Source: Acidimicrobiales bacterium (GTDB taxonomy: Bacteria; Actinomycetota; Acidimicrobiia; Acidimicrobiales; Bin134). From it: 64,000 nucleotides of DNA. The notes below the pieces were generated by a model. That model ran no database searches. It worked only from the letters and a program-made list of their open reading frames with translations, and had not been told where the DNA came from. Shown here one piece after another: positions 7,940 to 37,034 of this stretch. The position numbers and the translations under genes are program-made. Position 1 is the first letter of the stretch. Every line of letters begins with the position of its first letter. Location of the stretch: assembly GCA_965208785.1 (NCBI GenBank), contig OZ242356.1, positions 2,562,929-2,626,928 of the forward strand, in the 5' to 3' direction.

Positions 7940-9055
7940 TCAGTCGGGGCCTTCGGAGCTTGGCGCAATCGGCTTGGTGAGGCCGATCCGCTCGTAGGCC
8001 TCCGCGGGAATGGCCTCCAGGGACTTGTAGATCGTCCAGGTGCATTTTTTCGGCTCGGGACCAGACGTCTCCTCGGGATAGAGCGGAGAGTCGACCACTC
8101 TGATGGGATGACCCCACTGGCGGGCGGGCCACAGCTCCAAGGTGTAGCAGCAGTGGGCGCAGTAGTAGCAGACTCCCTTCTCGTTCCACGCCCAGTCATG
8201 TTCTTCGGAGGTGACTCCGAAGTTGTATGGCGGCGCCGAGCGGCTACCAGTTCCCTCGACGGGATCACCCCGCTGTCCCCGGTTCCCCGAGCCGCAGGGG
8301 TCGAATGAGATCACGTATTTGTCATCCTGTTCGGAGACCTCAATGTCGCCGGTTCGGTCAGGCCCGACGAGATGGGCCCGCATCCCCTCGAACGACAGAT
8401 AGAGGTTGCGGTAGAGGGTGTCCTCATAGGACTGGAGGCGCAGGTCGAAGGGTTGATAGCGCTCTTCGAGGTAGGGGGCAAGCACTTCGGAGTAGGCCTC
8501 ACCCACCGCGACCTCACCCAAGCGGTGGGCGACGAAGGTCAGCATACCCGATTGAAAGTCGGCGCCCCGGTCGTGGAGCTGACGCCATGCCTCTCGCAAC
8601 CGTTCCAAACGAATTAGTGCTTCTGACGCCTCGATCTCATAGGCCCGCAAGCCGTTGCCCAGCTCCCCGGCTTGCCGGGCCAGCTCTGCCCACCGGGGAT
8701 GGGAGTCAAACGGCTCATCGTCGGGAAAGGCCAGCAGTTCCCGCAAGCGAGCGGTTTCGCTGTCCAAGTCGTCTTCGCTGACACCCCGACTCGCCAGGAA
8801 CGAGCCCCAGCCCTCCCCCCACACCTGATAGATGACGTGGACCACTTTGGCCTCTTCCATCCAGTAATCCACGAGTTGGGCCGCGGTCTCCCAGTCTCCG
8901 GCATCGATGGCTTCGGTGATCTTGGCTGTGGTGGACACGGCTTGGTCGGTCCAGTCCCCGGTGCGGACCCGCTTGTTTATCTCCGTCGACCAGCTGAGGT
9001 GGGTCGGCGGGGCGGCAGATGTGCCAGAGATGCTTTTCTTGTGCTTCTGATCCAT
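7940..9055 (-). CDS. conserved cysteine-rich protein of unknown function (paralog A)
   Basis: ORF 7940..9514 trimmed to ATG 9055 (MDQKHKK...), with GGAG 8 nt upstream; the longer form would overlap the upstream SDR. 371 aa. Motifs GDWETAA, HLVGPDRTGD, FDPCGSG, GVCYYCAHC and KKCTW are shared with 30790..31908. Confidence 0.8.
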   Translation of the reverse strand: MDQKHKKSISGTSAAPPTHLSWSTEINKRVRTGDWTDQAVSTTAKITEAIDAGDWETAAQLVDYWMEEAKVVHVIYQVWGEGWGSFLASRGVSEDDLDSETARLRELLAFPDDEPFDSHPRWAELARQAGELGNGLRAYEIEASEALIRLERLREAWRQLHDRGADFQSGMLTFVAHRLGEVAVGEAYSEVLAPYLEERYQPFDLRLQSYEDTLYRNLYLSFEGMRAHLVGPDRTGDIEVSEQDDKYVISFDPCGSGNRGQRGDPVEGTGSRSAPPYNFGVTSEEHDWAWNEKGVCYYCAHCCYTLELWPARQWGHPIRVVDSPLYPEETSGPEPKKCTWTIYKSLEAIPAEAYERIGLTKPIAPSSEGPD

Positions 9056-11562: not shown

Positions 11563-12302
11563 GTGACTAGTCCTCCGTCGAAGTTGATGGCCTGTCCGGT
11601 CATGTATCCGGCACCGTCAGAGAGCAAAAACCAGATCAGCTCGGCAATCTCATCCGGTGTGGCGCCGCGGCCGAGGGGCACCGATTCCTGCCGCTGATCG
11701 GAGAGCTGCTGGGGGCTGATCCCCCGCAGAGCCGATACCTGGTCAAGCACGGCGTCTTGCATGGGCGTGTCGATGATTCCTGGACAGATGGCGTTGACCC
11801 GTACCGGGATCGACGACAGGGCGTAGGCGAATGACCGGGTGATGGACAGCACGCCCGCCTTGGTAGCGGCGTAAGAGGCAGCCTCGGTTGTGTTGGACAA
11901 CTTGGCCGACGAGGACGAGATGTTCACGATCGCGCCCCCCGGCGGCATGGTGGGGCCGATGCCCTGGCAGCAGAAGAACACCGCCTCAGCATTGACCTGA
12001 AAGAGCTCACGCCAGTCTTCGACCGTGATGTCTGCTATGTCCTTCAGGCGGATGATCCCTGCGGCCTGCACGAGCCAGTCGACCCCTCGAGCCGCTTCGA
12101 TCACCTTGGATCGATCATCCGGGTCGCCCAAGTCGGCGACGAGGGGGGCGGCCCCTTGCTCTGCGAGCGCGTCGAGGCCCTGGGGGTTGACGTCGGCGGC
12201 GATCACGTCGGCGCCCGACTTGAGCAGGAACCGAGCGGCGCCTGCGCCGATCCCGCTGGCTGCCCCGGTTACCAGTGCTCGCCGCGTTCTCGGGCTGCTC
12301 AT
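11556..12302 (-). CDS. short-chain dehydrogenase/reductase (SDR)
   Basis: ORF 11556..12752 trimmed to ATG 12302 (MSSPRTRRALVTGAASGIGAGAA). YAATKAG catalytic region. Its 3' end overlaps the VOC start by 7 nt. Confidence 0.85.
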   Translation of the reverse strand: MSSPRTRRALVTGAASGIGAGAARFLLKSGADVIAADVNPQGLDALAEQGAAPLVADLGDPDDRSKVIEAARGVDWLVQAAGIIRLKDIADITVEDWRELFQVNAEAVFFCCQGIGPTMPPGGAIVNISSSSAKLSNTTEAASYAATKAGVLSITRSFAYALSSIPVRVNAICPGIIDTPMQDAVLDQVSALRGISPQQLSDQRQESVPLGRGATPDEIAELIWFLLSDGAGYMTGQAINFDGGLVTW

Positions 12303-20601: not shown

Positions 20602-20628
20602 CTCTTCGTCACTTGGTTCAAACAGTAC

Positions 20629-20642
20629 TGGTAACGTTTTCA
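20629..20642. promoter_or_regulatory. LacI-type operator candidate O4 (TGGTAACGTTTTCA)
   Basis: Divergent gap between the dehydratase-like gene (start 20601) and the LacI gene (start 20703). 10/14 palindromic. Confidence 0.55.
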
Positions 20643-20702
20643 GCAGACCAACCTGCCTATGATTTCTGGCTTGAGCGTCTGCCGCCGACAAGGAAGTGGC
20701 GC

Positions 20703-21740
20703 ATGAAACACGAGTACGTCACGATGAAGGGCGCCACCATGAAGGAGGTGGCGGCCCATGCCGGGGTGGCCTTGTCCTCAGTGTCGCGAGTGCTCAACAA
20801 CCACCCGGATGTCAGCGAGGCCATGCAGCGGCAAGTACACGATGCCATCGCCGCTGTCGGCTACGAGCCCAACCTCTTGGCCTCCAGTTTGCGGCGGGGA
20901 TCCACCGAGACAGTGGGCTTCATCGCCAGCGACATCTCCAACCCGCTCTTCGCCGAGATCGTCCTCGGGGCAGAGCGCAGACTGGACGAATCCGGGTATT
21001 CCATGGTTCTCACCAACTCTGAGGGCAATCCCGAGCGCGATGAGGCCATGATCCGCCTCTTGAGGCGCCGGCGCATCGACGGGCTCATCTTGTCGGTGGC
21101 CGACGAGGACAGGCCGGGGACGATAGCCGAATTGTCCAAGCTGGCTGAGCCGGTGGTGCTCATCGACCGCGAGGTCAGCGGCTTCCACACCGCTTCGGCG
21201 GTATTCACTGATCATTCCGGCGGTATGCGGGCAGCCAGCGAGCACCTGCTCAGCCTGGGACATCGTCGAATTGCATTGATCTCAGGAGCTCGCAGCTTGC
21301 GCCCGGTTCGTGAGCGGCTCAAGGGCTTCGAAGCGGCCTTTGCAACTCGGGGCCTTCAGGTTCCCGAAGACCTCCTTCGCTTCGGCAGCTTCTCAGCGCC
21401 GTTCGGCCAGCAGGCCACCGCCGAACTGCTGGCCCTGGATGATCCGCCCACCGCAATCATCTCTGGCGGCAATCTCTTGCTCACCGGGGTGCTGCGAGCC
21501 CTGCAAGCGGGCCAACGGTCGGTTGGCGGGGATATCTCGCTCATATCCTGCGACGACGTCCCACTGGCTGAGCTCCACACACCTCCCATTTCCGTCGTCG
21601 ACCGAGACGCGGTGCAGATGGGCGATGCCGCCGCTAGTTTGCTGCTCGATCTTCTGGCTGGCGGGGATCGTCCCCGCGTGGCCGAAGTGCCCACCCATCT
21701 GCTTCTACGGGGTTCTACGCAACCGCTGGCCGTCGATTGA
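20703..21740 (+). CDS. LacI-family transcriptional regulator
   Basis: ATG 20703 has AAGGAAG 6 nt upstream. HTH segment ATMKEVAAHAGVALSSVSRVLNN...YEPNLLASSLRRG followed by a periplasmic-binding-protein-like effector domain. Confidence 0.9.
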   Translation: MKHEYVTMKGATMKEVAAHAGVALSSVSRVLNNHPDVSEAMQRQVHDAIAAVGYEPNLLASSLRRGSTETVGFIASDISNPLFAEIVLGAERRLDESGYSMVLTNSEGNPERDEAMIRLLRRRRIDGLILSVADEDRPGTIAELSKLAEPVVLIDREVSGFHTASAVFTDHSGGMRAASEHLLSLGHRRIALISGARSLRPVRERLKGFEAAFATRGLQVPEDLLRFGSFSAPFGQQATAELLALDDPPTAIISGGNLLLTGVLRALQAGQRSVGGDISLISCDDVPLAELHTPPISVVDRDAVQMGDAAASLLLDLLAGGDRPRVAEVPTHLLLRGSTQPLAVD

Positions 21741-25185: not shown

Positions 25186-25204
25186 GGTCGTCCTCCCTCT
25201 GCGC

Positions 25205-25218
25205 CGGTAACGTTTCCA
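25205..25218. promoter_or_regulatory. LacI-type operator candidate O5 (CGGTAACGTTTCCA)
   Basis: Divergent 63-bp gap between the Gfo/Idh/MocA gene and the SDR gene. Confidence 0.6.
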
Positions 25219-25248
25219 AGCGTAGAAGGCGAGCAAGGAGCGGGCAAA

Positions 25249-25995
25249 GTGGTCTCCAATGGGATGGCACAGGGGAAAGGGGTGGCCGGGAGGACGGCCG
25301 CGGTCACCGGCGCAGCCCGGGGCATTGGCCGGGCGGTGGCCGAATGCCTGGTGGACGGCGGTGCTCGAGTGGCCCTGCTCGACATCCAGGCGCCGACCGA
25401 CGAAGCGGCCCTGAATCAGTCTGACGACACGATGTTCGTGTTGTGCGACGTGACCGATGAGCAGTCTGTCGGCCACGCGGTCCGGCAAATCGAAGCGGTG
25501 TGGGACGGGGTGGACATCCTGGTCAACAATGCGGGGATCTTCGCCATTGAACCGCTGGAGCAGACCACGCTGGAGGGCTGGAACCGCATGCTCGCGGTCA
25601 ACCTCACGGGGAGCTTCCTGTGCAGTCGACGAGTCTTGCCCGGGATGCGCGACCAGGGGTGGGGCCGGATCATCTCCATGGGGTCGAGCGCGGGCAAGAC
25701 AGGCGGGTCGAAGAACACCGCGGCTTACGGCGCGGCCAAGGCGGGTGTCATGGCACTGGCAAAAGCCATCGCCACCGAATATGCCCCGTGGGGGATCACG
25801 TCGAACGCGATGGCGCCGGCGCTCATAGAAACCGACATGGTGGCAGGAATAGCCGACCTGGCTGATGGCATTCCAGTGGGGCGCCTCGGCCAACCGGCCG
25901 ATGTCGCCCATGCCGTGCGGTTCCTGGCCAGTGAAGAGGCGGGCTACATCACCGGCGAGGTGATGGATGTCAACGGGGGGTTCCTGATCGACTGA
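25249..25995 (+). CDS. short-chain dehydrogenase/reductase (SDR)
   Basis: GTG 25249 with AAGGAG 8 nt upstream; the in-frame ATG 25264 is an alternative start. AAVTGAARGIGRA Rossmann motif and YGAAKAG catalytic region. Confidence 0.85.
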   Translation: MVSNGMAQGKGVAGRTAAVTGAARGIGRAVAECLVDGGARVALLDIQAPTDEAALNQSDDTMFVLCDVTDEQSVGHAVRQIEAVWDGVDILVNNAGIFAIEPLEQTTLEGWNRMLAVNLTGSFLCSRRVLPGMRDQGWGRIISMGSSAGKTGGSKNTAAYGAAKAGVMALAKAIATEYAPWGITSNAMAPALIETDMVAGIADLADGIPVGRLGQPADVAHAVRFLASEEAGYITGEVMDVNGGFLID

Positions 25996-26067
25996 CGCGC
26001 ATGACGCGGGGCGGGTTGGGCCAGACCTGCTGGCAACGCTTCCCGGTGGGCGATAGCTTGCCTGGCC

Positions 26068-26382
26068 ATGGAACGCGCCTGCTTCACCTTCGAGATCTAC
26101 CCCGACGCCGCCGACGAGTACAAGAAGCGCCACGACGAGATCTGGCCTGAGCTCGTTGAGGCCATTCAGGCGGCCGGGCTCAAGAACTACTCCCTATTCC
26201 GCCGGGGGACTCAGGTCATCGCCTATGTGGAATGCCACCCTGACGTGGAGACGGCGTTCGGCAAGATCGGTGAAACCGAGGTCAATGGACGCTGGGCGAC
26301 GTGGTTCGAGGATGTGATCGTCTCCCTGGCCGACGACGACGGCAACCTGTACTGGGCCGACGAGGTGTGGCACTTGGATTGA
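26068..26382 (+). CDS. rhaM: L-rhamnose mutarotase family protein
   Basis: 104 aa. YKKRHDEIWPEL...AGLKNYSLF...WHLD pattern typical of the RhaM/YiiL family. Confidence 0.75.
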   Translation: MERACFTFEIYPDAADEYKKRHDEIWPELVEAIQAAGLKNYSLFRRGTQVIAYVECHPDVETAFGKIGETEVNGRWATWFEDVIVSLADDDGNLYWADEVWHLD

Positions 26383-27855: not shown

Positions 27856-27884
27856 GAGTGTTGGAAAGAGAGAGGCGGAAAGGG

Positions 27885-29285
27885 ATGACTCCCCTAAAGA
27901 TCGGCCAATTGTCTGCGTATTTCGGACTGTTCGATGAAGCTATGCCGGCCGGGTTCCGCCAAACGCGCCGAGACTATGCCGCCGCGGTTGGCGACATGCT
28001 GGCGGCGTACGGTGAAGTCGTTGCGCCCGGTCTGGTGGACAACCTGGACAGCGCCGCTGAAGCGAACGAAGCGTTCGTCAAAGAAGGGGTGGACGTTGTG
28101 GTCTTCGCTCCCACCATGGCGGCGCCCCCCGGATGGGCGGCGCGGGCATTGGATGGCTTGGATGTGCCGGTTGTCGTGCTAGGGGCCCAGGAGAGCGGGA
28201 CTGTGCCCGACGACTACGACACCGAGACGGCCACCGCTCGCAGTCTGCCGGTGGGGCTGGTCATGTTCACCAATGTGCTTGTCCGGCGACGGCGGTCGTT
28301 CACCGCTGTGGTAGGCGAGTTGGGGTCGCCGACGCTGACAGTCTCGCTGGGCCGGGCCATGAGGGCAGCAGCGGCCGTAGCCACCATTCGCGGCCGGCCC
28401 ATTGCCCAAGTTGGCGAGGCCATCGGGGGCTACGACGATGTCATGGCCTCTGAGCAGGAGCTGGCCTTGCTGGGAGTGCGAACGGTGTCGATCACGGCCG
28501 AGAAGCTGACTGAGGCGTTCCAGTCGGTCTCGCCAACCCGGGTGAAGGCGGTTGCCGACGAGGTCCGGGCGACCGCAGACGCCGACGCGGTTCCCCCCGA
28601 GGTCTTGGACAGGTCGTGCCAGCTGAGCGCGGCGCTGGAAGACCTGTGTGATGCCTATCGGGTTTGCGGTGGGACGGTGAACTGCCACGGGCCGGTGATG
28701 CGCTGGAACCCGGGAGTGGGAATCACCGCGTGTTTGGGCGTCACCCGGCTCAGCGAGCGGGGCATCCCGTTCTCCTGCACCGGCGATGTCCCCACGGCCA
28801 TTGCGCTCTCGCTATGCAAGTCGGTGGCCGGGGCCGCGTTGTACTGCGAGCTGTATCAGATGGACTTCGCCGGAGACTGGATCCTGGTGGCCAACGGCGG
28901 GGAGGGAGATCCAACCGGCCGCGCCCCGGGGTCGGCGATACGCTTGCTGCCCGAGGACCACTATTCGGGAGAGCATGGCCCCGGTACCGCCTCGGCTTTC
29001 GAGCTGGCTGAAGGCCCGTCCACCTTGGTGAGCCTGACTCCGGCCGCAGCCGCTGTGGGCGGCTGGCTCTTGGTCGTGGCCGAGGGCGAGATCATCGGCG
29101 CACGCCATCGCCGAATGGAGGGGCCAAACGGCATGTTCCGGTTTTCTGCCGCGCCAGTGGCTGAGGCTTATCAGGCCTGGTGCCAGGCAGGCGCTACCCA
29201 CCATGCGGTGCTGGTGCCCGGGGCTCGTCAAGATGATCTGGCGTGCGTTGCCGATCTGTTGGGAATTGAGCTGGCCGCGGTCTAG
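27885..29285 (+). CDS. L-arabinose/L-fucose isomerase-family protein (putative sugar isomerase), paralog 1
   Basis: ATG 27885 with GGAAAGGG upstream. 466 aa. Overall pattern (N-terminal Rossmann-like VVVFAPTMA..., central CHGP, GDVPTA, C-terminal HHAVLVPG) resembles the AraA/FucI superfamily. The assignment is tentative. Confidence 0.55.
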   Translation: MTPLKIGQLSAYFGLFDEAMPAGFRQTRRDYAAAVGDMLAAYGEVVAPGLVDNLDSAAEANEAFVKEGVDVVVFAPTMAAPPGWAARALDGLDVPVVVLGAQESGTVPDDYDTETATARSLPVGLVMFTNVLVRRRRSFTAVVGELGSPTLTVSLGRAMRAAAAVATIRGRPIAQVGEAIGGYDDVMASEQELALLGVRTVSITAEKLTEAFQSVSPTRVKAVADEVRATADADAVPPEVLDRSCQLSAALEDLCDAYRVCGGTVNCHGPVMRWNPGVGITACLGVTRLSERGIPFSCTGDVPTAIALSLCKSVAGAALYCELYQMDFAGDWILVANGGEGDPTGRAPGSAIRLLPEDHYSGEHGPGTASAFELAEGPSTLVSLTPAAAAVGGWLLVVAEGEIIGARHRRMEGPNGMFRFSAAPVAEAYQAWCQAGATHHAVLVPGARQDDLACVADLLGIELAAV

Positions 29286-29308: not shown

Positions 29309-30754
29309 TTACACCACGGTGCAGTCAACGTTTGCGAAATTGGCTACTGCGGCCACTGCTGATGCCAAGTGCCCAGGGGAGATGGCACTGTGGTGGTTGA
29401 CCCCGGAAGCCGTCCACCGGGCCCATGCTTCGGCCACTGACCCGTTGGAGAAGCGGAACACGCCTCCGACGGTGGGGTTGGCGGGCAGTTCTCGGCCGGT
29501 GATCTCCCCTTCGGCCACGACGAAGCCGAACCCTGACGGATGTTCCGGTTGGGGGGCGAACCCGACCAGCGATGCCGGCCCAGTCGGCAATTCGAAATGG
29601 GCCCGATACCCGGTGCGCTGATCGGCGTCATACCAGGGGTTGGGTCCCAGCTTCGGCACTCGGCCATCCGAGCACCAGTCCAGGTCATGCTCCCCTGAGT
29701 TGGCCACCGCCACCTCACCGGTCTTGAAGTCGATGGCCTCGATTTCGTGGTAGAGGGCCGCACCGGAAAGCTGCTTGGCCACCAGCATGGCCACTGCGGT
29801 GAGCACATCCCCGGTACACGTCCAAGGCACTCCCCGAGTGGTTTCGCAGCCCAGCCCGAAACAAGGTGTCAGTCCGGGGTCGGGTCCGAAGCGGATCTCC
29901 GGAACATGGCAGTTCATTGCTCCGGCGGCGAAATCGCCCTCTCGGTCCAGGGCCTCGAGTGCGGCCGCCAGACGAAGGGACCTGTCGAGGTCGTCCTCCG
30001 GTCCCGGTTCTATCTCAAATGAGCCGACCACCCGTTGGCGCCAAGAGGCGGCCTGGGCGTCGTCGACCGCGGCGTAGTGCCGCAGCACATCGTGTGGGGT
30101 CAGGGCTACGACTTCTATCCCCAGAGACCGCCCCAGTTCTTCGTCGTCGGCGTCGACGCATCCGTAGCCATCCAGGGGGCGGCCGACCCGAGCCAATCGA
30201 GCTCGGCGCAAGCGAGTCGCCACGGCTGCGGCTCGAAGCCGGTCGGCCACCTCGGCTGCGCCCCGCTCGCTCCCTTCGGGGGAGACCACCAGCTCGAAAG
30301 CTCGCCGGGTCCGGTGGAGCATGTTGGTGATCATCGGAGTGCCCACGGTCGCCCCCAGAGACGTGACATGACCAGCATTGAAGTCAGCAGGGATGACCGC
30401 CGACCTCTGCACCGCCCAGATGACGACCGGCCGAGGGAGATGATCGAGGAGGCCTAATGCATGAGAGGGAGGCACTGCCATCGACTGAACTACCAATACA
30501 GCTTCGGGGCCGCGGGCCGCGGCCTCTTCAGCGCCGCGGACGCCCTGTTCGGGACCGTCGACCAGTCCCTGCCAAACGACATCGATGTTCCGTTCTCCAA
30601 GGAGGTCACCCACAGACCGCAGCAGATTCTCGCGGTCACTTCGAAAATCTGGCCCGACGCTCGATTCCCAAAAATCCCAATAGGGAACGACGACTGCGGC
30701 TCTCGGCGCGGCCTTCTGGTGGTAGCCAGGCTCGCCATCGATCGGTATAGTCAT
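29309..30754 (-). CDS. L-arabinose/L-fucose isomerase-family protein, paralog 2
   Basis: ATG 30754 (MTIPIDG...). 481 aa. Colinear with 27885..29285 (MNCHVPE.., CTGDVLTAVAML, NHHSAISPGH). Confidence 0.55.
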   Translation of the reverse strand: MTIPIDGEPGYHQKAAPRAAVVVPYWDFWESSVGPDFRSDRENLLRSVGDLLGERNIDVVWQGLVDGPEQGVRGAEEAAARGPEAVLVVQSMAVPPSHALGLLDHLPRPVVIWAVQRSAVIPADFNAGHVTSLGATVGTPMITNMLHRTRRAFELVVSPEGSERGAAEVADRLRAAAVATRLRRARLARVGRPLDGYGCVDADDEELGRSLGIEVVALTPHDVLRHYAAVDDAQAASWRQRVVGSFEIEPGPEDDLDRSLRLAAALEALDREGDFAAGAMNCHVPEIRFGPDPGLTPCFGLGCETTRGVPWTCTGDVLTAVAMLVAKQLSGAALYHEIEAIDFKTGEVAVANSGEHDLDWCSDGRVPKLGPNPWYDADQRTGYRAHFELPTGPASLVGFAPQPEHPSGFGFVVAEGEITGRELPANPTVGGVFRFSNGSVAEAWARWTASGVNHHSAISPGHLASAVAAVANFANVDCTVV

Positions 30755-30757
30755 TGC

Positions 30758-30771
30758 TGGAAACGTTACCA
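30758..30771. promoter_or_regulatory. LacI-type operator candidate O7 (TGGAAACGTTACCA)
   Basis: Fills most of the 35-bp divergent gap between isomerase-like paralog 2 and Cys-rich paralog B. Confidence 0.6.
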
Positions 30772-30789
30772 AGGAGAAGGAAACGGCAG

Positions 30790-31908
30790 ATGTCAGAGAC
30801 CAGGATCGAATTCTCCGAAGTGCTGGGGCGACGGGTGCGCCTGGGGCCCTGGGAAGATCAGAAGATCTCGACTTATCGAAAGATAATAGAGAGCATTGAC
30901 CAAGGGGATTGGGAGACAGCGGCCGATCTTGCCGACTACTTCACCGACGAGGCCAACGTCTGCTTCACCCTCTACCGCCAATGGATCAATGATTTGCGCG
31001 GGTTTCTGCGGGATAGCGGTGCATCCGCTGAAGAGGTGGCATCCATTGATGCCGATGTTCAATCCAAGCTCACCTGCCCCGACGGACGGGAGTGGAATGC
31101 CCACCGCCATTGGGACCAGTACCGAGATGAACAGCGCCGACTCTTGGCCACCATCTACCGGGAAGATGCCGAGCAGGCCCGAGAGCACCTGGCGACCATG
31201 AAGGAGACCTGGCGCCAGACCCACGACCGTGATGTGGATCACACATATGGGCTCATGTCAGCCATTCAGGCCCGCCACGGAGCCCAGGGCATCGCCGATA
31301 TGTACCAACGGGTGCTCGTGCCGCTCTTCTCGTGGCGGTACAACAAGTTCGATATCGACCAGCATCCGTGGGACGAGGCGTTGGAGACGCTGATGCTGGT
31401 GGCCTGCGAAGCCATGAGAGGCCATTTGGTCGGACCGGAGCGCACCGGTGACTTTGAACTGATCGAGGCCGATGACCGCTTCATCCTGCGGTTCGATCCC
31501 TGCGGGTCGGGTCAGCGGATTGTCCGCGGCGACTGGATCGAAGACACCCCGGCCCGGATAGAGCCCCCCTACAACTGGGAGGTGGCAAAAGAGGAGGCAT
31601 CTTGGAACCACTTCACAAAGGGGGTCTGCCTCTATTGCGCCCACTGCATTGTGCTGATGGAAGAACTGCCCATCGACCGCTTCGGCTATCCGGTGCGAGT
31701 GATCGACCCGCCGGTGTACCCCGACACCGACCCTGACCCTGAGGTGCGTCAGAAGTGTCAATGGCAGATGTTCAAGGATCCCACCACCGTTCCTGAGGAG
31801 TATTACCTTCGGGTGGGCCGGAAAAAGCCCAAAGTATTCGGGTCGAGCAACTTTGATGCCCCCGAACTGCCCGACGCCGGAGCACTCGGGCTCCCTGGCA
31901 CAGGCTGA
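30790..31908 (+). CDS. conserved cysteine-rich protein of unknown function (paralog B)
   Basis: ATG 30790 preceded by AAGGAGAAGGA. 372 aa. GDWETAA, HLVGPERTGD, FDPCGSG, GVCLYCAHC and QKCQW are colinear with 7940..9055. Confidence 0.8.
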   Translation: MSETRIEFSEVLGRRVRLGPWEDQKISTYRKIIESIDQGDWETAADLADYFTDEANVCFTLYRQWINDLRGFLRDSGASAEEVASIDADVQSKLTCPDGREWNAHRHWDQYRDEQRRLLATIYREDAEQAREHLATMKETWRQTHDRDVDHTYGLMSAIQARHGAQGIADMYQRVLVPLFSWRYNKFDIDQHPWDEALETLMLVACEAMRGHLVGPERTGDFELIEADDRFILRFDPCGSGQRIVRGDWIEDTPARIEPPYNWEVAKEEASWNHFTKGVCLYCAHCIVLMEELPIDRFGYPVRVIDPPVYPDTDPDPEVRQKCQWQMFKDPTTVPEEYYLRVGRKKPKVFGSSNFDAPELPDAGALGLPGTG

Positions 31909-31914
31909 CCTTCC

Positions 31915-32937
31915 ATGAAGGCAGCAGTGCTTCGCGGCTATGGAGAACCCCTGGAGCTGGTCGAGCGCGAGCCGCTAATGCCCGGCACCGGCCAAGTGGT
32001 GGTTGAGGTCAAGGCCTGCGGCGTCTGCGGCAGCGACGTGTTCCTTCGCAAGGGAGGGTTCGACTCGGTGCTGCCGATTGTGCCCGGTCACGAGGCATCC
32101 GGCGTGGTGGCTCGTGTCGGCCCCGACGTGGAAGGTCTACGGGTTGGCGATCCGGTAGCCGCCTACTACATCGAGCACTGCGGGCAATGCCCCCTGTGCG
32201 TTCAGGGGCGGGTGAACATGTGCTTGTCTGTGCGGCGCATGGGGGTGGAGTTCGACGGGGCCTTTGCCGGCGAAGTGCTGATTCCGGCGCGCAACGCCAT
32301 AGCAGTAGAGCCGGGCGACGATCTTGCCGCGGTGGCGGTGCTGACCGACGCGGTTGCCACTCCGTACCACGCCCTGGTCCGCGTGGCCGGAGTTGAGCCG
32401 GGGATGACGGTTGTCGTGCTGGGGGTGGGGGGAATCGGCTCAAACGCGGTGCAGTTGGCTGCTCACCTTGGCTGCGAAGTGATCGCGGTGAGCCGCTCGC
32501 CGGCCAAGCTGGACCTCGCGGAGCAACTCGGGGCTCGGGCCGTGGTTTCGGCCGCGGATGGCGAGGGCAGGATGCTCGACGGAATCAGACAGGCTTGCAG
32601 CCCAGCCGGGCCCCAGGTTGTGGTCCAGACGGTGGGATCAGCGGATGTGGACTCCCAGGCGCTAGAAGCGGTGGGCATCGGGGGCAAGGTATTGCTCATC
32701 GGGGCCAGCATGGAGCCGTTCTCCGTTCGGGCGGTGGATCTCATCTGGAAGGAGGCGTCCGTCCACGGTTCGCGGGGTTTCGTGCCCGATGATATTCGCG
32801 AGGTTTTGGATCTCTACCGACACGGTGCGGTACGCGTCGACCACTTGTTGCGCAGGCAGCGACCGCTTGAGGAGGCAAACCAGGCCCTCGACGAGCTTGA
32901 AGCCGGCCAAGTGCTCCGGTCGGTGTTGATCCCCTAG
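31915..32937 (+). CDS. zinc-dependent alcohol dehydrogenase (MDR family)
   Basis: 340 aa. CGVCGSD and GHEASGVV zinc motifs, GVGGIG NAD-binding motif. Confidence 0.9.
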   Translation: MKAAVLRGYGEPLELVEREPLMPGTGQVVVEVKACGVCGSDVFLRKGGFDSVLPIVPGHEASGVVARVGPDVEGLRVGDPVAAYYIEHCGQCPLCVQGRVNMCLSVRRMGVEFDGAFAGEVLIPARNAIAVEPGDDLAAVAVLTDAVATPYHALVRVAGVEPGMTVVVLGVGGIGSNAVQLAAHLGCEVIAVSRSPAKLDLAEQLGARAVVSAADGEGRMLDGIRQACSPAGPQVVVQTVGSADVDSQALEAVGIGGKVLLIGASMEPFSVRAVDLIWKEASVHGSRGFVPDDIREVLDLYRHGAVRVDHLLRRQRPLEEANQALDELEAGQVLRSVLIP

Positions 32938-32941
32938 TGGT

Positions 32942-33049
32942 GTGTCCCCGCGGTTGGAGCGGGTCGAGTACGAGTTCTGGCCGATGGGCATGGGGTTCAC
33001 CGGCGGCGATCTGGCCCGGGCTTTCTATCTGGAGCAGTATCCGCTCTAG
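32942..33049 (+). CDS. possible 35-aa small ORF or gene remnant (VSPRLERVEYEFWPMGMGFTGGDLARAFYLEQYPL)
   Basis: GTG start. Third-codon positions are almost all G/C, like real genes here. Fills the 108-bp convergent gap, and its TAG overlaps the TAG of the opposing ligase gene. Confidence 0.3.
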   Translation: MSPRLERVEYEFWPMGMGFTGGDLARAFYLEQYPL

Positions 33050-34545
33050 CCCAGCAGGTGCTTCTGCACCTTGCCCAGGGCGTTGCGGGGGAGTTCTTCG
33101 ACGAGGTGGAGGAGGCGGGGGTGTTTGAAGTCGGCGCACACGCCTTCTAGGTGGGATCGCAGATCTTTCAGCTTTGGGGACTTGCCAGGGGCGGGTACTA
33201 CCCAGGCGGTGACCTGCTCGCCCCATTCTTCGTCGGGGGTCCCGGTGATGGCTACATCGTCGACTTCGGGGTGGGAGCGCAGGGCGTCCTCTACTTCGCG
33301 GGGGTAGACGTTCAGGCCTCCGGAGATCACCAATTCCTTGGCCCGGCCCCGCAGCCGTAGATAGCCGTCCTCGTCGAACTCACCGAGGTCGCCGGTGCGG
33401 AACCAGCCATCTAGGTCAAATGCCTCCTCGGTGGCCTCGGGGCGGCGCCAGTATCCGGCAAATACGTTTGGCCCCCGCACCATCACTTCGCCACTGTCGG
33501 GAGCCAACCGCAGCTCCACGCCGGGGAGGGGGAATCCCACTGTTCCGGCGCGGCGCTCCTCGTCGTAGGGATTGGACACCAGCATGATGGTCTCGGTCAT
33601 GCCGTAGCGCTCCAGCACCCGCACTCCGGCGGCCTCTTGCAGGCGGCGATGCAGATCAGCCGACAGGGGAGCGGAGCCGGCTACGCATAATCGCAGCCGG
33701 GAAAGCTCCCCGGTCCTGTCCGATTGGGCCAGCCGGGTGTACATGGTGGGCACGCCGAAGAACAGGGTGGCGTCGTGGGCTTGGGCTGCATCCAGCACGG
33801 CGTCGGGGGAGAACCCATCGAGCAGCACTGCGGAAGCGCCGGTCAAGAGAGTGCCATGCAGGCCGACGCCTAGGCCGTGCATGTGAAATAGGGGCAGCGC
33901 CAGAACTAGGCGGTCGTCGGGCGTCCACCGCCAGGCAATGCGCACCGACTCGGCCCCGGCCAGCAAGTTACCGTGGGTCAGCACCGCTCCTTTGGGCACT
34001 CCAGTGGTTCCCGATGTATAGCCCAGCAGTGCGGGATCGCCGGCGGAGAGCTGGTCAAGACTGGGAGCCTGGCCCTCGTCGATGTCCAGCCGGGGGGATA
34101 CCACGGTCATCTCGGGGGCAAGCTCGGCCAGCCACCGCACCCATTCGGGCTTGTCCACCACCGCGGCCCGAGGATCGGCGTCCCCCACGATGTGGGCCAA
34201 CTCGGCCTGCTGGTAGGCCCCGTTCACCGGCACCACGATCAGCCCCAACCGCAGGGCAGCTATATGGGCCACCGCCAAATCGACCGACGCCGCGGCCGAG
34301 AGGATGATCCGGTCGCCCTTGCGAAGTCCTGCACCGTAGAGCCGCCCGGCTGCGGCCTTCGTACGCTGAGCCAGGTCGCCCCTTGTGATCCACCCAGTTC
34401 CCGGGTCCCACAACGTCGGCTTGGATGCCCCGGAAGCCCAGCGCTTGCTCCATGCCGCTGGCAGGCTGATTTCGTCCAACAAGTCCCCGCCATCGGGGTC
34501 GACCCCCCTTGGGAAGTGGACAGCATCGGCTCGGGCAGTGCTCAC
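33046..34545 (-). CDS. AMP-dependent acyl-CoA synthetase/ligase
   Basis: 499 aa. GYTSGTTGVPKGAVLTH and WFRTGDLGEFDEDGYLRLRGRAKE. Confidence 0.9.
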   Translation of the reverse strand: MSTARADAVHFPRGVDPDGGDLLDEISLPAAWSKRWASGASKPTLWDPGTGWITRGDLAQRTKAAAGRLYGAGLRKGDRIILSAAASVDLAVAHIAALRLGLIVVPVNGAYQQAELAHIVGDADPRAAVVDKPEWVRWLAELAPEMTVVSPRLDIDEGQAPSLDQLSAGDPALLGYTSGTTGVPKGAVLTHGNLLAGAESVRIAWRWTPDDRLVLALPLFHMHGLGVGLHGTLLTGASAVLLDGFSPDAVLDAAQAHDATLFFGVPTMYTRLAQSDRTGELSRLRLCVAGSAPLSADLHRRLQEAAGVRVLERYGMTETIMLVSNPYDEERRAGTVGFPLPGVELRLAPDSGEVMVRGPNVFAGYWRRPEATEEAFDLDGWFRTGDLGEFDEDGYLRLRGRAKELVISGGLNVYPREVEDALRSHPEVDDVAITGTPDEEWGEQVTAWVVPAPGKSPKLKDLRSHLEGVCADFKHPRLLHLVEELPRNALGKVQKHLLG

Positions 34546-34556
34546 GACTCACGATA

Positions 34557-36200
34557 ATGTCACTCCCCGTGCCCTTGAACCTGGCCACAGCGTGGGAAGC
34601 GGCTGCGGAGGTGGTGCCGGACGCTGACGCGGTGGTGTGCGATCCGGTGACACGGACATGGCGAGAGTTCGAGGATCGGGCCGCTCGACTAGCGACTGCT
34701 CTGGGAGAACTCGGCATCTGTGCGGGCGACAACGTGGGGTTGTACCTGTACAACGGCAATCCCTACTCCGAGATCACCTTCGGGTCGTTCAAGTCGAGGG
34801 TTGCCCCCTGCAACGTGAATTACCGCTACCTGGCGGGGGAGTTGCGCCATCTGTTGGAGGACGCTGACGCCAAGGCGGTGTTCTTCTCTCCCGAGCTGGC
34901 CGACCGGGTGGACGAGGCCAGAGCAGACCTTCCCCTGTTGCGGGCGGCTGTCCAGGTGGGCGGGGCGGGCGATCCAGTGCCCGACTGGGCGTTGGACTAC
35001 GAACAGGTGATCGCCGGCCACGAGCCGGCTCCGCCCATCGACCGCAGCTCCGACGACCTTTGGATCCTCTACACCGGCGGCACCACCGGCAATCCCAAGG
35101 GGGTCATGTGGCCCCACAGCTCGCTGATCGGCGCCATGGCCCCCAACTTCAAGGCGTTGAAGCTGCCGGTCCCGGAGAATCTGGAGCAGGTTAAGTCCAA
35201 CATCGCCGCCATCTACGACAGCAACCGGGTGTCCCGTCAGCTTGCCGCCTCTCCGCTGATGCACGGCACGGCCAGCATCGTGTCGCTGTCGACCTTCACC
35301 CAGGGCGGATCGGTGATCACCATGGCCGAGCGCAGCTTCGACGCCGACGCGCTGTGGCGCTGTGTAGCGCGCGACCGGGCATCGGTGCTCACCATCGTGG
35401 GCGACGCCTTCGGCCGACCCATGGCAAAGGCGCTGGACGCAGCCGCCGCCCGGGGCGAGCCCTACGACCTGTCGTCGGTGTTCATGATCATGTCGTCGGG
35501 GGTGATCTGGAGCCAGCCTGCCAAAGAGGCCTTGCTGGTGCACAAAAACATGAAACTGGTGGACTCCTTGGGCTCCAGTGAGGGCACCGGTACCGGCATG
35601 AGGATCAGCGACCGGGAGGGCGGATCAGCAACCGCTCGGTTCACCCTGGGGGAGAACGCCGCGGTGTTCGACGAGGACGGCCTCCCGGTCGAGCCGGGCT
35701 CAGGGCAGCAGGGCATGGTGGCGGTAGGCGGCCCCATCCCCATCGGCTACTACAAGGACCCGGAGAAGACGGCAGCCACGTTTCGCACTATCGGCGGGCG
35801 GCGCTGGTCGGTGCCTGGGGATTGGGCCACTGTTGAAGCCGATGGAACCATCACGCTGCTGGGCCGGGGCTCTGCCTGCATCAACAGCGCGGGAGAGAAG
35901 ATCTATCCCGAGGAAGTGGAAGAGGCGGTGAAGGCCCATCCCGCAGTGGCCGACTGCCTGGTAGTGGGAGTGCCCGATCCGAAGTGGGGCGAGGCTGTCA
36001 CTGCGGTGGTGCAGTTGGCCGGCGACCCGGCGTCTCAAGCGGTGGGCGACGACGAGGTCATTGCCGACGCCCGCACCCGCTTGGCGGCCTACAAGCTCCC
36101 CAAGTCGCTCATCCGGGCCGATGCCGTCCAGCGTGGAGCCAATGGCAAGCCCGACTACCAGTGGGCTAAGCAGTTCGCCCTCGACTCTCTGTCGGAGTAG
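34557..36200 (+). CDS. AMP-dependent acyl-CoA synthetase/ligase
   Basis: ATG 34557 (MSLPVPLN...). ILYTGGTTGNPKGVMWPH and GDWATVEADGTITLLGRGS. Confidence 0.9.
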   Translation: MSLPVPLNLATAWEAAAEVVPDADAVVCDPVTRTWREFEDRAARLATALGELGICAGDNVGLYLYNGNPYSEITFGSFKSRVAPCNVNYRYLAGELRHLLEDADAKAVFFSPELADRVDEARADLPLLRAAVQVGGAGDPVPDWALDYEQVIAGHEPAPPIDRSSDDLWILYTGGTTGNPKGVMWPHSSLIGAMAPNFKALKLPVPENLEQVKSNIAAIYDSNRVSRQLAASPLMHGTASIVSLSTFTQGGSVITMAERSFDADALWRCVARDRASVLTIVGDAFGRPMAKALDAAAARGEPYDLSSVFMIMSSGVIWSQPAKEALLVHKNMKLVDSLGSSEGTGTGMRISDREGGSATARFTLGENAAVFDEDGLPVEPGSGQQGMVAVGGPIPIGYYKDPEKTAATFRTIGGRRWSVPGDWATVEADGTITLLGRGSACINSAGEKIYPEEVEEAVKAHPAVADCLVVGVPDPKWGEAVTAVVQLAGDPASQAVGDDEVIADARTRLAAYKLPKSLIRADAVQRGANGKPDYQWAKQFALDSLSE

Positions 36201-36224: not shown

Positions 36225-37034
36225 ATGAGCATCAAAGTGACTGCGCTGCCGGCGGCCTTGGGCGCCACGGTGGAAGGGCTCGATGCCGATCACCTCGACG
36301 ACGGGGCAGCGGCCGAGTTGCGGGAGGCGTTCTGGGCCCACAAAGTGCTGTTCTTCCCCCAGATTCACCTGACCGACGAACAGCACGTGGCCCTGGGCTC
36401 GCTGTTCGGCGACCTGGAGGCGGTGAGCAACGATGACACCGACCATCGAGATCATCACACGGTGGACGACGAGGGAAAGATCCTGGTGTTGGACAGCTCC
36501 AACGAATACTCGCGGGCCAACTTCTGGCACACCGACGTGACGTTCGCCCGCCAGCCCCCGCTGGGGTCTCTGCTGTCTATGAAGGAGTCACCGCCCTCCG
36601 GTGGCGACACCATGTGGGCCAACACCCAGGCCGCCTACGAGGGCCTGTCCGATCCGATCAAGGCGGCTCTCGAAGGGGTTGTCGCCCGCCACGGCCGGGC
36701 CGGTCTGACCGAGTTCACCGATCACCCGGCGATAACCACCCACCCCGAGACCGGCAAGCGGATCCTGTTTGTGAACCGGGGCTGGACGTCATCGCTTCAG
36801 GGCATGAGCCACCTGGAGAGCAGGTGCCTATTGGCGCTGCTGTGCGATCACATGGAGCAGCCCGAATACGTTGTGAGATGGCGATGGAGCGACGGAGACG
36901 CTGCCTTGTGGGACAACCGCTGCACTATGCACTACGCCATCGACGACTACGGCACCGACCACCGCCGCATCCACAGGGTCACCATCTACGACCCCTCCGG
37001 CGCGGGCCCGGTGGCCGCCGCCCCTGCGGCGTAG
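36225..37034 (+). CDS. TauD/TfdA-family Fe(II)/2-oxoglutarate dioxygenase
   Basis: 269 aa. WHTDVTF (HxD) and GGDTMWAN segments. Confidence 0.85.
   Translation: MSIKVTALPAALGATVEGLDADHLDDGAAAELREAFWAHKVLFFPQIHLTDEQHVALGSLFGDLEAVSNDDTDHRDHHTVDDEGKILVLDSSNEYSRANFWHTDVTFARQPPLGSLLSMKESPPSGGDTMWANTQAAYEGLSDPIKAALEGVVARHGRAGLTEFTDHPAITTHPETGKRILFVNRGWTSSLQGMSHLESRCLLALLCDHMEQPEYVVRWRWSDGDAALWDNRCTMHYAIDDYGTDHRRIHRVTIYDPSGAGPVAAAPAA

Follow-up and report, generated by a model that had tools for sequence, protein, structure and literature searches.

The strict partner of paralog B, a 372-residue member of an unnamed superfamily, is the divergently encoded L-arabinose isomerase-like protein Iso2 and not the alcohol dehydrogenase (ADH) downstream, an outcome absent from the expectations of a preliminary description of this DNA. 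Because B always occurs with Iso2, and usually just 5' of the ADH in sugar-breakdown clusters, it is probably an undescribed metal-dependent enzyme. Five observations are new here: the co-occurrence of B with Iso2, the pairing of B with the ADH in Acidimicrobiia, the pairing of the second copy, paralog A, with a short-chain dehydrogenase (SDR), a reciprocal exchange of cysteines in the superfamily, and a conserved tail that only B carries. In the following, the window is the whole stretch of 64,000 nucleotides that was analysed.

Gene B and its control region

The genes and sites in and around B are as follows, with the basis of each assignment in brackets.

30790..31908, plus strand: paralog B, unnamed Cys-motif superfamily member, 372 aa (open reading frame and translation)
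29309..30754, minus strand: Iso2, divergent AraA-like protein, strict co-occurring partner of B (family profile against PDB)
31915..32937, plus strand: AdhP-like Zn-dependent alcohol dehydrogenase, beginning 6 nt past the stop of B (Pfam ADH_N, ADH_zinc_N)
30758..30771, strandless: LacI-type operator O7, TGGAAACGTTACCA (palindrome in the gap between B and Iso2)
30723..30751, plus strand: promoter-like -35 TAGCCA and -10 TATAGT for B, within the opening codons of Iso2 (consensus scan)
20613..21740, plus strand: LacI-family regulator, candidate repressor for the operators (Pfam LacI and Peripla_BP)

The reading frame of B extends from an ATG at 30790 to a TGA at 31906-31908, which gives 372 aa. 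A TTG at 30754 that would start a longer protein is unsupported, since the orthologue alignment begins at about residue 4 counted from the ATG. The gene product is real and cytoplasmic, and belongs to the B-type orthologous group of its superfamily. The layout given in the preliminary description was largely accurate: the gap to the divergent AraA-like gene measures 35 nt (30755-30789, with the minus-strand ATG at 30754), and the ATG of the Zn-ADH lies at 31915, 6 nt past the stop codon of B. Operator O7 is indeed present in the gap, but it covers 14 of the 35 nt and not quite most of them as had been claimed. The label 'cysteine-rich' was overstated for a protein with 8 Cys, but 5 of these are invariant in A- and B-type sequences.

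By its sequence, O7 qualifies as a LacI/GalR operator: it is a 14-bp palindrome with a central CG, it is repeated in the regulon and conserved among orthologues, and a LacI gene lies nearby. Sites with at most 2 mismatches from TGGAAACGTTTCCA occur 6 times in the window against 0.08 expected, and 11 related loci repeat the O7 14-mer at position -32 relative to the ATG, or -30 in one of them. With a consensus scan that returned 2 promoter sites against 0.5 expected, the predicted transcription start of B falls at O7. Expression of B would be controlled via a LacI-type operator at the start point of the predicted promoter, to which a repressor is predicted to bind.

A large superfamily with no named relative

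We found 646 homologues of B, the best 120 of which are all at least 64% identical to it and all annotated as 'hypothetical'. Across phyla the identity of B is 64-70%, a sign of strong constraint. At 50% identity the superfamily falls into 874 clusters; hundreds of its members are close to full length, and its carriers are soil Chloroflexota, Actinomycetota and sponge symbionts. Membership was defined by the blocks WRxxHD, MRGHLxGP, FDPCGSGxR, GVCxYCxHC and KCxWxxYK in a full-length alignment (A, B, C, D, E and F types); B aligns over its full length, reaches 885 bits with its own cluster and is 39% identical to A.

Both the family and the fold of B are new, with no named relative in the Pfam, NCBIfam, PDB or Foldseek searches. 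Scans of B and A against Pfam (E ≤ 0.01) and NCBIfam gave zero matches, and Pfam at E ≤ 5 on 46 diverse superfamily members gave scattered noise with nothing consistent. Searches of the PDB by sequence and by profile retrieved only de novo designed helical proteins, in matches driven by composition, and Foldseek returned no match at E < 0.001 for the whole B model or for a separately modelled C-terminal domain (pLDDT 79). In the literature searched, the family of B is nowhere described.

Several specific assignments were rejected. A corrinoid cap (B12-binding_2, PF02607) was matched by 3 of the 46 members with a best E of 0.033, which is noise, and the B model has neither a Rossmann domain nor a DxHxxG motif. 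The FAH family (PF01557), class II aldolases (PF00596), HpcH/HpaI (PF03328) and GHKL/PDK-like kinases had no Pfam match in B or A, and the families listed from the scan of 46 members include neither FAA_hydrolase nor HATPase_c nor either aldolase family. The aldolase families also had no structural match; for the kinases the best histidine-kinase row in Foldseek had E > 1 and a TM of ~0.2, and the C-domain of B is not a Bergerat fold. B carries C280-x2-C283-x2-C286 and is not a 4Fe-4S ferredoxin, as the fourth Cys-Pro is absent; Fer4 gave no Pfam match in B or A at E ≤ 0.01 and is likewise missing from the families listed for the 46 members. The seemingly fused long representatives, P0374 among them, proved to result from frameshifts, from translation of low-complexity sequence or from tandem self-duplication of the family, and none of them fuses the family to Iso2 or to any enzyme domain.

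A predicted metal site and a B-specific tail

Two regions of B were distinguished by their conservation.

31501..31758, plus strand: predicted metal-site codons (C238 at 31501-03, C280 at 31627-29, C283 at 31636-38, H285, C286 at 31645-47, C323 at 31756-58)
31837..31905, plus strand: B-specific C-terminal tail FGS-x8-P-x5-G-x-PG-x-G (conservation in 77 B sequences)

The AlphaFold (AF2) model of B (pLDDT 92) has a beta-hairpin at the N-terminus, then a long bundle of helices and a small alpha/beta domain, which is built of one long helix and four short strands. Residues C238, C280, C283, C286 and C323 are invariant in 42 A- and B-type sequences, and across the superfamily C238, C286, C323 and H285 are each at least 90% conserved. 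Several subfamilies have Pro, Ser or Asp instead of C280, and variant subfamilies have C241 in place of C283; the occurrence of Cys241 and Cys283 is reciprocal, the four classes numbering 395, 5, 3 and 1 sequences. This swapping across the superfamily indicates that the alpha/beta domain carries a single predicted four-ligand metal site, whose ligands would be C238, C323 and two of C283, C286, H285 and C280. Zn, Fe and Fe-S would all look alike at this predicted site from sequence alone. A further set of near-universal polar residues, the helical-bundle set (H145, D146, H212, R17, E54, R183, R210, R218, R243, Y282 and R303), forms a pattern that resembles an active site. The B-type group is monophyletic apart from A (SH-aLRT 99) and is marked by the C-terminal tail, in which all 77 B sequences have F350, G351, S352, P361, G367, P369, G370 and G372. 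This tail is predicted to be disordered (pLDDT 30-55), and paralog A does not have it.

Iso2 is the strict partner of B

The window also contains a second gene of the Iso2 kind.

27858..29285, plus strand: Iso1, second AraA-like paralog, 34% identical to Iso2 (Pfam, paralog comparison)

A family profile of Iso2 matched the L-arabinose isomerases of the PDB with an E of 6.7e-17 over positions 26-450, and Iso2 scores far below the curated NCBIfam cut-offs. In the AraA tetrad of E306, E333, H350 and H450, the equivalent of Glu306 is Thr (CTGD) and the other three residues are conserved. The Iso2 family furthermore has three invariant Cys.

Iso2 was present in all of the 34 diverse genomes that carry B, nearly always on the same contig and within ~15 kb, although these genomes are not independent: they represent ~19 lineages at 85% identity, and in 14 of the 19 Iso2 lies within 10 kb. 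Counted by locus, an AraA-like gene lies within 6 kb of B in 54/77 cases. Among 61 relatives, Iso2 and the A plus B pair were found in exactly the same 12 genomes and neither in the other 49; within the genus, this co-occurrence is the inheritance of one island. In Chloroflexota the operon divergent from B encodes an EamA transporter, a RhaM mutarotase and Iso2, in that order. From this comparative genomics we infer that B works together with Iso2.

The link to the ADH is of a different extent. The ADH has the catalytic Cys38/His59 and the structural Cys89/92/95/103 of a Zn-dependent MDR alcohol dehydrogenase, and its best PDB match is 1rjw (E 2.6e-43); in sequence it is like AdhP/1rjw, enzymes for small alcohols and aldehydes, and not like polyol or glucose dehydrogenases. 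A Zn-ADH lies within 6 kb of B in 48/77 loci, and immediately downstream on the same strand in 42/77. Tight pairing is limited to Acidimicrobiia, where the ADH is directly behind B in 47/49 loci, against 4/31 elsewhere (within 6 kb). The ADH is followed by an esterase or PTE-type lactonase in 26 loci (Abhydrolase_3 in 11, PTE in 15). A P450 adjoins B in 9 loci, where no ferredoxin was seen. E1 alpha/beta was rejected as an obligate partner: 31/34 B genomes have it, but in Spongiisociaceae it is not linked to B, and paralogs make the count less certain.

The neighbour tallies contain no sugar kinase, known aldolase or FAH hydrolase. The organism's own genome has 5 FAH and 2 HpcH genes, all outside the window, so an argument from non-orthologous displacement is weak. 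Matching of the neighbouring SDRs, dehydratases and lactonase to NCBIfam equivalogs stayed far below cut-off throughout, and no sugar could be assigned.

A and B are ancient paralogs

The second copy lies in an operon of its own.

7940..9055, minus strand: paralog A, in the operon VOC - enolase-type dehydratase - SDR - A - CoA-transferase III (paralog search)

The preliminary description had taken A and B for two copies of 'clearly partial' identity, and for members of one regulon that did not arise by recent duplication. These points are borne out: A and B are 39% identical over 355 aa (E 9e-94), the operator repeats place both in one operator-marked regulon, and the A (24 rows) and B (77 rows) sequences form separate clades (SH-aLRT 99). 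Since each of these clades includes both Actinomycetota and Chloroflexota, the paralogy is ancient. The same description had made its reading depend on homologues being linked to sugar-catabolic genes. This linkage is retained in homologues of both types, with a lactonase, enolase-type dehydratases, RhaM and sugar ABC transporters nearby, so the reading survives this check. Its suggestion that each type keeps its own partners holds in part: B goes with AraA-like and Zn-ADH genes and A with SDRs (18/24 A loci, an adjacent ADH being found in 0/24), but the tightness of B and ADH is confined to Acidimicrobiia and some loci are mixed. In other phyla, B and A share one operon at locus L081, and at L082 B stands behind an enolase-type dehydratase and ahead of SDRs. 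A was found in 22/30 B genomes, and the complete Spongiisociaceae chromosomes carry B without A. More distant subfamilies of the superfamily reside in amino-acid- or peptide-type clusters and not in sugar clusters. Across subfamilies, the neighbouring genes encode enzymes that make or use carbonyls (SDR, Zn-ADH, 2-hydroxyacid dehydrogenase, aminotransferase, enolase-type dehydratase and E1 alpha/beta).

Possible functions of B

Our leading but tentative proposal, possible and short of probable, is that B is a new metalloenzyme acting on a carbonyl intermediate between Iso2 and the AdhP-like ADH. We infer the type of reaction from gene neighbours only, and it has no biochemical or structural precedent. 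Following the Chloroflexota gene order, EamA would take up a rhamnose-like 6-deoxyhexose, RhaM would mutarotate it and Iso2 would isomerise it before it reaches B. B would then convert the ketose or other carbonyl made by Iso2, most likely by a retro-aldol-type C-C cleavage, a guess at the chemistry that we expect to be wrong more often than right. Such a cleavage would replace the kinase and aldolase steps that are absent from these clusters, and would release a small aldehyde that the adjacent ADH may oxidise or reduce. In Acidimicrobiia, comparative genomics suggests that B hands on to an AdhP-like Zn-ADH with which it would be translationally coupled, and the floppy C-terminal tail conserved only in B may dock on Iso2 or on the ADH. 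A more specific form of the proposal, in which B and the Cys-bearing Iso2 make up a two-protein metalloenzyme that isomerises a 6-deoxyhexose, cleaves a C-C bond of the unphosphorylated ketose and passes the aldehyde to the ADH, is very unlikely to hold as a whole.

Several observations speak against the retro-aldol ketose reading. The ADH link is lineage-specific, the esterase or PTE-type lactonase genes behind the ADH (26 loci) are left unexplained, and distant subfamilies lie outside sugar clusters. In some genomes B comes after an enolase-type dehydratase and before SDRs, exactly like A, a layout with which cleavage of a 2-keto-3-deoxy acid agrees no less well than that of a ketose. A and B might both be C-C cleaving enzymes that release pyruvate in an oxidative, non-phosphorylative deoxyhexose route and differ only in substrate, either as 4-hydroxy-2-oxo acid aldolases or as 2,4-diketo-3-deoxy acid hydrolases, standing in for the FAH-family hydrolase or HpcH/DHDPS aldolase missing from the clusters. 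The enolase-type dehydratase directly upstream of A in the window, of B in L082 and of D-type members (with stop/start overlap) fits this, as do the SDR beside A in 18/24 loci, the recurrence with A, B, D and E types of E1 alpha/beta, a possible consumer of pyruvate or 2-oxoacids, and the absence of FAH and aldolase genes from the island. We nevertheless consider it rather unlikely, given the strict AraA-like tie of B but not of A, the five FAH genes elsewhere in the genome, and a family that resembles no aldolase or FAH in sequence or fold. Alternatively, the family may not be a stand-alone enzyme but may serve as accessory, electron-transfer or Fe-S subunit to a partner such as the atypical AraA-like protein, an E2-less E1 alpha/beta or a P450, B forming a two-component enzyme with Iso2. 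Besides the strict co-occurrence, this would suit an Iso2 that has lost one catalytic/metal-binding Glu of AraA and has three invariant Cys, the 9 loci with a P450 and no ferredoxin seen, a D-type member directly followed by E1 alpha/beta and then ETF, the docking-like tail of B, and tandem-duplicated family members that suggest a dimer as the working unit. We judge it quite unlikely: B and Iso2 are divergently transcribed, not co-translated, and no fusion of the two was found; the conserved Arg, His and Asp of the helical bundle look like a substrate site; ligand swapping is a pattern seen more with mononuclear Cys4 sites than with clusters; and E1 is unlinked to B in Spongiisociaceae.

It seems highly improbable that B makes a thiol adduct (hemithioacetal, mycothiol or CoA) of an aldehyde, which the adjacent dehydrogenase would turn into a thioester, to be cleaved by the following esterase/PTE or passed to a CoA-transferase. 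The layout is like that of the Gfa system, with B and the Zn-ADH followed by Abhydrolase_3 (11 loci) or PTE (15 loci); a CoA-transferase III lies behind A, VOC/glyoxalase genes recur, and the many invariant Arg could bind CoA or thiol cofactors. This is analogy only, since B has no similarity to Gfa; the ADH scores 150 bits against a cut-off of 513 for the mycothiol-dependent formaldehyde dehydrogenase (FDH), and the link to Iso2 is not accounted for. Least probable is a non-catalytic B with a role in regulation or sensing, or as metallochaperone to Iso2 or the ADH. Its gene is divergent from that of its partner, and it has a helical-bundle architecture without a recognisable catalytic fold. 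However, Pfam detected no DNA-binding domain in B and A or in the 46-member scan, the LacI regulator and operators already account for control, and 64-70% identity between phyla together with an ancient paralog radiation is typical of enzymes.

Significance and comparison with known systems

The superfamily of B is large and strongly constrained, yet invisible to the curated libraries and the structure comparison searched, and in operons for the catabolism of carbohydrates and 2-oxoacids it takes a constant position at which one step has no assigned enzyme. To determine the reaction of B would close a gap in non-canonical deoxy-sugar catabolism, and would provide a function for an atypical branch of the arabinose-isomerase superfamily along with a new metalloprotein fold. 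The strict pairing of B with Iso2 offers experimenters a concrete two-protein system.

Four known systems come closest to that of B. PDK/BCKDK-type kinases are of similar length and likewise have a helical bundle followed by an alpha/beta part, and the superfamily is often found near E1 alpha/beta and a free lipoyl protein. Gfa with a class III Zn-ADH and S-formylglutathione hydrolase offers an analogy in gene order, namely a Cys-ligated metal protein, a Zn-ADH and an esterase-type hydrolase. Gfa, however, is about half the size of B, the ADH beside B is not a thiol-dependent FDH equivalog, and Pfam GFA was unmatched by B and A at E ≤ 0.01 and not among the 25 most-matched families listed for the 46 members at E ≤ 5. 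The FAH-family 2,4-diketo-3-deoxy-L-fuconate and -L-rhamnonate hydrolases and the HpcH/DHDPS-type 2-keto-3-deoxy-acid aldolases would share with B the role of final C-C cleaving enzyme in oxidative deoxyhexose clusters, alongside a lactonase, an enolase-type dehydratase and SDRs. Their sequences and folds are unrelated to the sequence and predicted fold of B, which is also tied to an isomerase-like protein that those pathways need not have.

The pathway slot proposed for B is occupied in the classical pathways by FucK/FucA and RhaB/RhaD, a ketose kinase and a class II Zn aldolase, with the lactaldehyde reductase FucO or RhaZ. Like these, B comes after a transporter, a RhaM mutarotase and an isomerase of the AraA/FucI superfamily and before an alcohol or aldehyde dehydrogenase, and a metal dependence is plausible. 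Unlike these, B has no sequence or fold similarity to them and no kinase or ATP motif, and as one protein it is proposed to perform two steps on an unphosphorylated sugar. If this is true, B and Iso2 would constitute a kinase-free, ATP-independent alternative to the classical fuc and rha pathways, built on a fold without known relative.

B is a regulated gene paired with an alcohol dehydrogenase

The gene for the 372-aa protein B, whose paralog A is encoded at 7940-9055 on the reverse strand, is divergent from the gene for an AraA-like protein, Iso2 (29309-30754, reverse strand). The following features were located at this junction:

30723-30751, promoter-like -35/-10 pair
30754, reverse strand, ATG start codon of Iso2, leaving a 35-nt gap to B
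30758-30771, palindrome TGGAAACGTTACCA, in the gap
30771-30776, Shine-Dalgarno sequence AAGGAG, in the gap
30790 (ATG) to 31906-31908 (TGA), forward strand, open reading frame of B, 372 aa by translation

These positions agree with the preliminary description of a 372-aa protein lying 35 nt from a divergent AraA-like gene. An alternative, longer form of B would start at a TTG codon at 30754; orthologues align from residue ~4 of the ATG form. The operator previously assigned to the gap is indeed present, as a LacI-type palindrome at 30758-30771, but with 14 of the 35 nt it does not take up the greater part of the gap. Sites matching TGGAAACGTTTCCA with at most two mismatches occur six times in the window (G+C content 64.8%) versus 0.08 expected, and 11 species-level relatives have the identical operator 14-mer, always at -32 except for one case at -30. 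The promoter-like pair, predicted by a consensus scan only, lies within the first codons of the divergent gene and would place the transcription start of B on the operator. B is a real, regulated gene.

As had also been proposed, a Zn-dependent MDR alcohol dehydrogenase (ADH; 31915-32937, forward strand) begins 6 nt past the B stop codon, as judged from the ORF positions and the domain match. Both its catalytic and its structural zinc ligands were found in the sequence, and its nearest solved relatives are tetrameric alcohol dehydrogenases of the AdhP/1rjw type. The B-ADH pair is followed by two divergent acyl-CoA ligase genes (33046-36200) and a TauD-family dioxygenase gene (36225-37034, forward strand). 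Since these genes occur at this place only in the genome under study and its closest relative (L001), they fall outside the conserved module.

A and B belong to a new family with a new predicted fold

A and B are 39% identical over 355 residues, and neither matched Pfam-A, the NCBIfam models or PDB sequences. Each has a set of orthologues of its own. The search with B found 646 proteins, and identity does not fall below 64% among the best 120; with A it found 508, and the corresponding lower bound is 62%. All of these best matches are annotated as 'hypothetical'. When 1.84 billion cluster representatives were searched with a profile, 874 clusters, many represented by fragments, matched at E≤0.001; these make up the superfamily.

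In the confident AlphaFold2 model of B (pLDDT 92, pTM 0.90, from a 42-sequence alignment), a hairpin at the N terminus precedes a helical bundle (residues 28-212), one helix of which is 60 residues long, and a small alpha/beta domain (220-345); the C-terminal tail is of low confidence. Foldseek searches against the PDB returned nothing at E<0.001, either for the whole chain or for the separately modelled C-terminal domain. A profile of 46 diverse members matched only designed helical proteins in the PDB, and these members gave no consistent weak signal against Pfam. The superfamily thus constitutes a new family with a new predicted fold. A resemblance to GHKL proteins was considered and rejected, as Foldseek gave no PDB match at E<0.001.

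Five members of 440-550 aa (P0288, P0289, P0316, P0386 and P0389) contain internal tandem duplications of the C-terminal two-thirds, a hint at a dimeric working unit.

Ligand swapping indicates one cysteine-based metal site

In A- and B-type sequences, C238, C280, C283, C286, C323 and H285 are invariant (numbering of B). The 46 superfamily members extend to identities as low as 21%, and the sole residue that all of them share is Y282. Conservation is 90% or higher for D146, H212, C238, H285, C286 and C323; several subfamilies have Pro, Ser or Asp in place of C280. We next tallied Cys241 and Cys283 in 404 family sequences. Cys283 was present and Cys241 absent in 395, and the reverse held in five, where a C238-x2-C241 knuckle is formed; three sequences had neither residue and one had both. 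This swapping of ligands points to one four-ligand metal site, and the family has one Cys-based site. The sequences indicate that it would be formed by C238, C323 and two movable partners, with Zn, Fe or a cluster fitting alike.

The helical bundle carries near-universal polar residues (R17, E54, W65, H145, D146, R183, R210, H212, R218, R243 and R303), and we read these as a substrate or catalytic site. The tail of B (residues 350-372) is predicted to be disordered and is missing from A. Its residues F350, G351, S352, P361, G367, P369, G370 and G372, the last of the protein, nevertheless show 100% conservation among 77 B sequences that represent several phyla. This tail may serve to dock B onto a partner protein, which would be Iso2 or ADH.

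The A/B paralogy is ancient

A maximum-likelihood tree (111 rows, built with the quick search of IQ-TREE) resolved separate clades for the 77 B-type and the 24 A-type sequences. Each clade had an SH-aLRT of 99 and included both Actinomycetota and Chloroflexota. The duplication is therefore ancient, which upholds the earlier view that it was not recent. The distribution is patchy: a strong match was found in 2 of 151 genomes sampled across the class, and in the genus itself A and B occur in 12 of 37 genomes, never one without the other.

A third, very distant paralog (309 aa) is present in the genome under study and in most of the genus, including genomes that lack the A/B island:

G000:C1:1665794-1666141 (L086 1513-2442), reverse strand, third paralog, outside the window

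It has a CGTCG knuckle and lacks the CxxCxxC motif, and its start overlaps the end of a luciferase-like monooxygenase gene by 8 nt. In two Chloroflexia genomes (L060 14715-15860, L073 15338-16474), a second copy that lies 5 kb away from B belongs to a further clade, X, which is 41-44% identical to both A and B; its operon partners are VOC, enolase, SDR and GFO genes.

B is strictly associated with Iso2

Each of the 34 diverse genomes with B that were examined has an Iso2 orthologue (≥45% identity), nearly always on the same contig within ~15 kb of B; in two assemblies the orthologue is truncated or split. Among 61 relatives, Iso2 and the A+B pair coincide exactly: both are present in the same 12 genomes and both are absent from the remaining 49. 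These samples are phylogenetically non-independent; at 85% identity they reduce to ~19 B lineages, 14 of which have Iso2 within 10 kb. B is strictly associated with Iso2. An A-type gene was present in only 22 of 30 B genomes, and complete Spongiisociaceae chromosomes have B, Iso2 and ADH but not A, so that B can do without A. An E1 alpha orthologue (≥49% identity) occurs in 31 of the 34 B genomes, unlinked in Spongiisociaceae.

A profile of Iso2 and its paralog Iso1 (27858-29285, forward strand) aligned end to end with solved L-arabinose isomerases (E 6.7e-17), and by this criterion both are true but distant homologues of these enzymes. The equivalents of AraA E333, H350 and H450 are retained, and that of Glu306 is Thr, within an invariant C-T-G-D motif; C282, C298 and C313 are invariant. 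The Thr substitution and the invariant cysteines mark Iso2 as an atypical member of the isomerase superfamily, and Iso1 and Iso2 are probably not canonical isomerases.

A and B keep different neighbours

Neighbourhoods were analysed at 80 B-type loci, taken from species-representative genomes, and in 20 regions surrounding A-type genes; the tallies cover 77 non-identical B loci and 24 A loci. Neighbours were counted with a purpose-written ORF caller and BLAST clustering, and cluster identities were checked with Pfam; the caller sometimes merges or trims genes, the SDR of the window being absorbed into an over-long A ORF. Within 6 kb of B, an AraA-like gene was found at 54 of 77 loci, a Zn-ADH at 48 (directly downstream on the same strand at 42) and an SDR at 35. 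Amidohydro_2 lactonases (18 loci), PTE-family hydrolases (15), Abhydrolase_3 proteins (11), P450s (9) and tandem-domain RhaM genes (9) also occurred near B, with single-domain RhaM genes within 9 kb at 13 further loci. Around A, an SDR was present within 6 kb at 18 of 24 loci (adjacent in 7), an AraA-like gene at only 6, and an adjoining ADH at none.

B and ADH lay within 6 kb of each other at 47 of 49 Acidimicrobiia loci versus 4 of 31 elsewhere, and the coupling of B to an AdhP-like ADH is thus lineage-specific, essentially confined to Acidimicrobiia. In Chloroflexota, the genes for Iso2, RhaM and an EamA transporter typically share one strand and face B, behind which a convergent lactonase gene is located. 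Exceptions occur. L082 has the order LacI-SDR-A-HpcH-CoA transferase-MaoC-lipoyl-E2-E1 alpha-E1 beta, a lactonase on the opposite strand, and then enolase-B-SDR-SDR. L081 combines B-unknown-A-SDR-LacI in one Chloroflexia operon, where the protein between B and A (11154-11930, 258 aa) has no Pfam match.

In the window, GFO/IDH/MocA oxidoreductase domains of a 681-aa ORF (24088-26133, reverse strand) begin only at residue ~320; the N-terminal 320 residues matched no family and could reflect either a start placed too far upstream or an unrecognised domain.

Distant subfamilies also lie in catabolic operons

Other subfamilies, 25-40% identical to A and B, are likewise found within catabolic operons. 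D-type genes are preceded by an enolase-type dehydratase and followed by a MetE-like gene (three loci), or preceded by a class III aminotransferase and followed by E1 alpha/beta plus ETF or by SDR-Lyase_1-E1, or arranged as SDR-D-SDR-VOC-SDR. An E-type gene is followed by a 2-hydroxyacid dehydrogenase, and the F type is divergent from GntR and followed by two glutamine-synthetase-like genes and an SDR. Common to these contexts are an adjoining NAD(P)-dependent dehydrogenase, enolase-type dehydratases, E2-poor E1 alpha/beta and VOC proteins. Because such neighbours make or consume ketones, aldehydes or 2-oxo acids, we place the chemistry of the family at a carbonyl intermediate.

E1 alpha/beta genes without a nearby E2 recur beside distant members (L108 9001-12009, L113 8001-13148, L109 2977-4948), in one case followed by ETF alpha/beta; their E1 alpha is 45-48% identical to E1 alpha genes in the BLAST cluster that also contains the window's E1 alpha (best match in L069, near A/B). 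The MetE-like (Meth_synt_2) genes lie directly 3' of D-type members in soil metagenome loci L107, L110 and L114. At L037 (15401-20832) and ~7 related Spongiisociaceae loci, B-ADH-PTE-SDR is followed 5-9 kb downstream by a complete corrinoid methyltransferase set, made up of a URO-D/MtaA-like protein, a corrinoid protein that binds B12, a RACo activase and an unassigned 341-aa protein. A methyl-transfer theme around the family is possible.

A proposed role for B

We propose that B would catalyse the step that follows the isomerase in the conversion of a rhamnose-like 6-deoxy sugar, and would pass a small carbonyl product to ADH. The neighbour tallies of B and A loci contained no sugar kinase, known aldolase or FAH hydrolase, which makes kinase-free C-C cleavage by B the most economical guess, albeit a tentative one that we would not favour over all other readings combined. 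Its main rival is that both paralogs cleave the 2-keto-3-deoxy or 2,4-diketo acids of an oxidative route; this would account for the enolase and SDR neighbours but leaves the link to Iso2 unexplained. Alternatively, B could be an accessory or Fe-S subunit forming a two-component enzyme with Iso2, have a thiol-adduct role, or act non-catalytically.

Pfam, NCBIfam, PDB and literature searches found no curated family, solved structure or publication describing A or B. The present analysis contributes their phylogeny, quantified partner preferences and the strict co-occurrence of B and Iso2. It also describes the altered catalytic residue of Iso2, the ligand swapping that points to a single metal site, the conserved tail of B and the gene contexts of distant subfamilies, and it rejects a GHKL resemblance.
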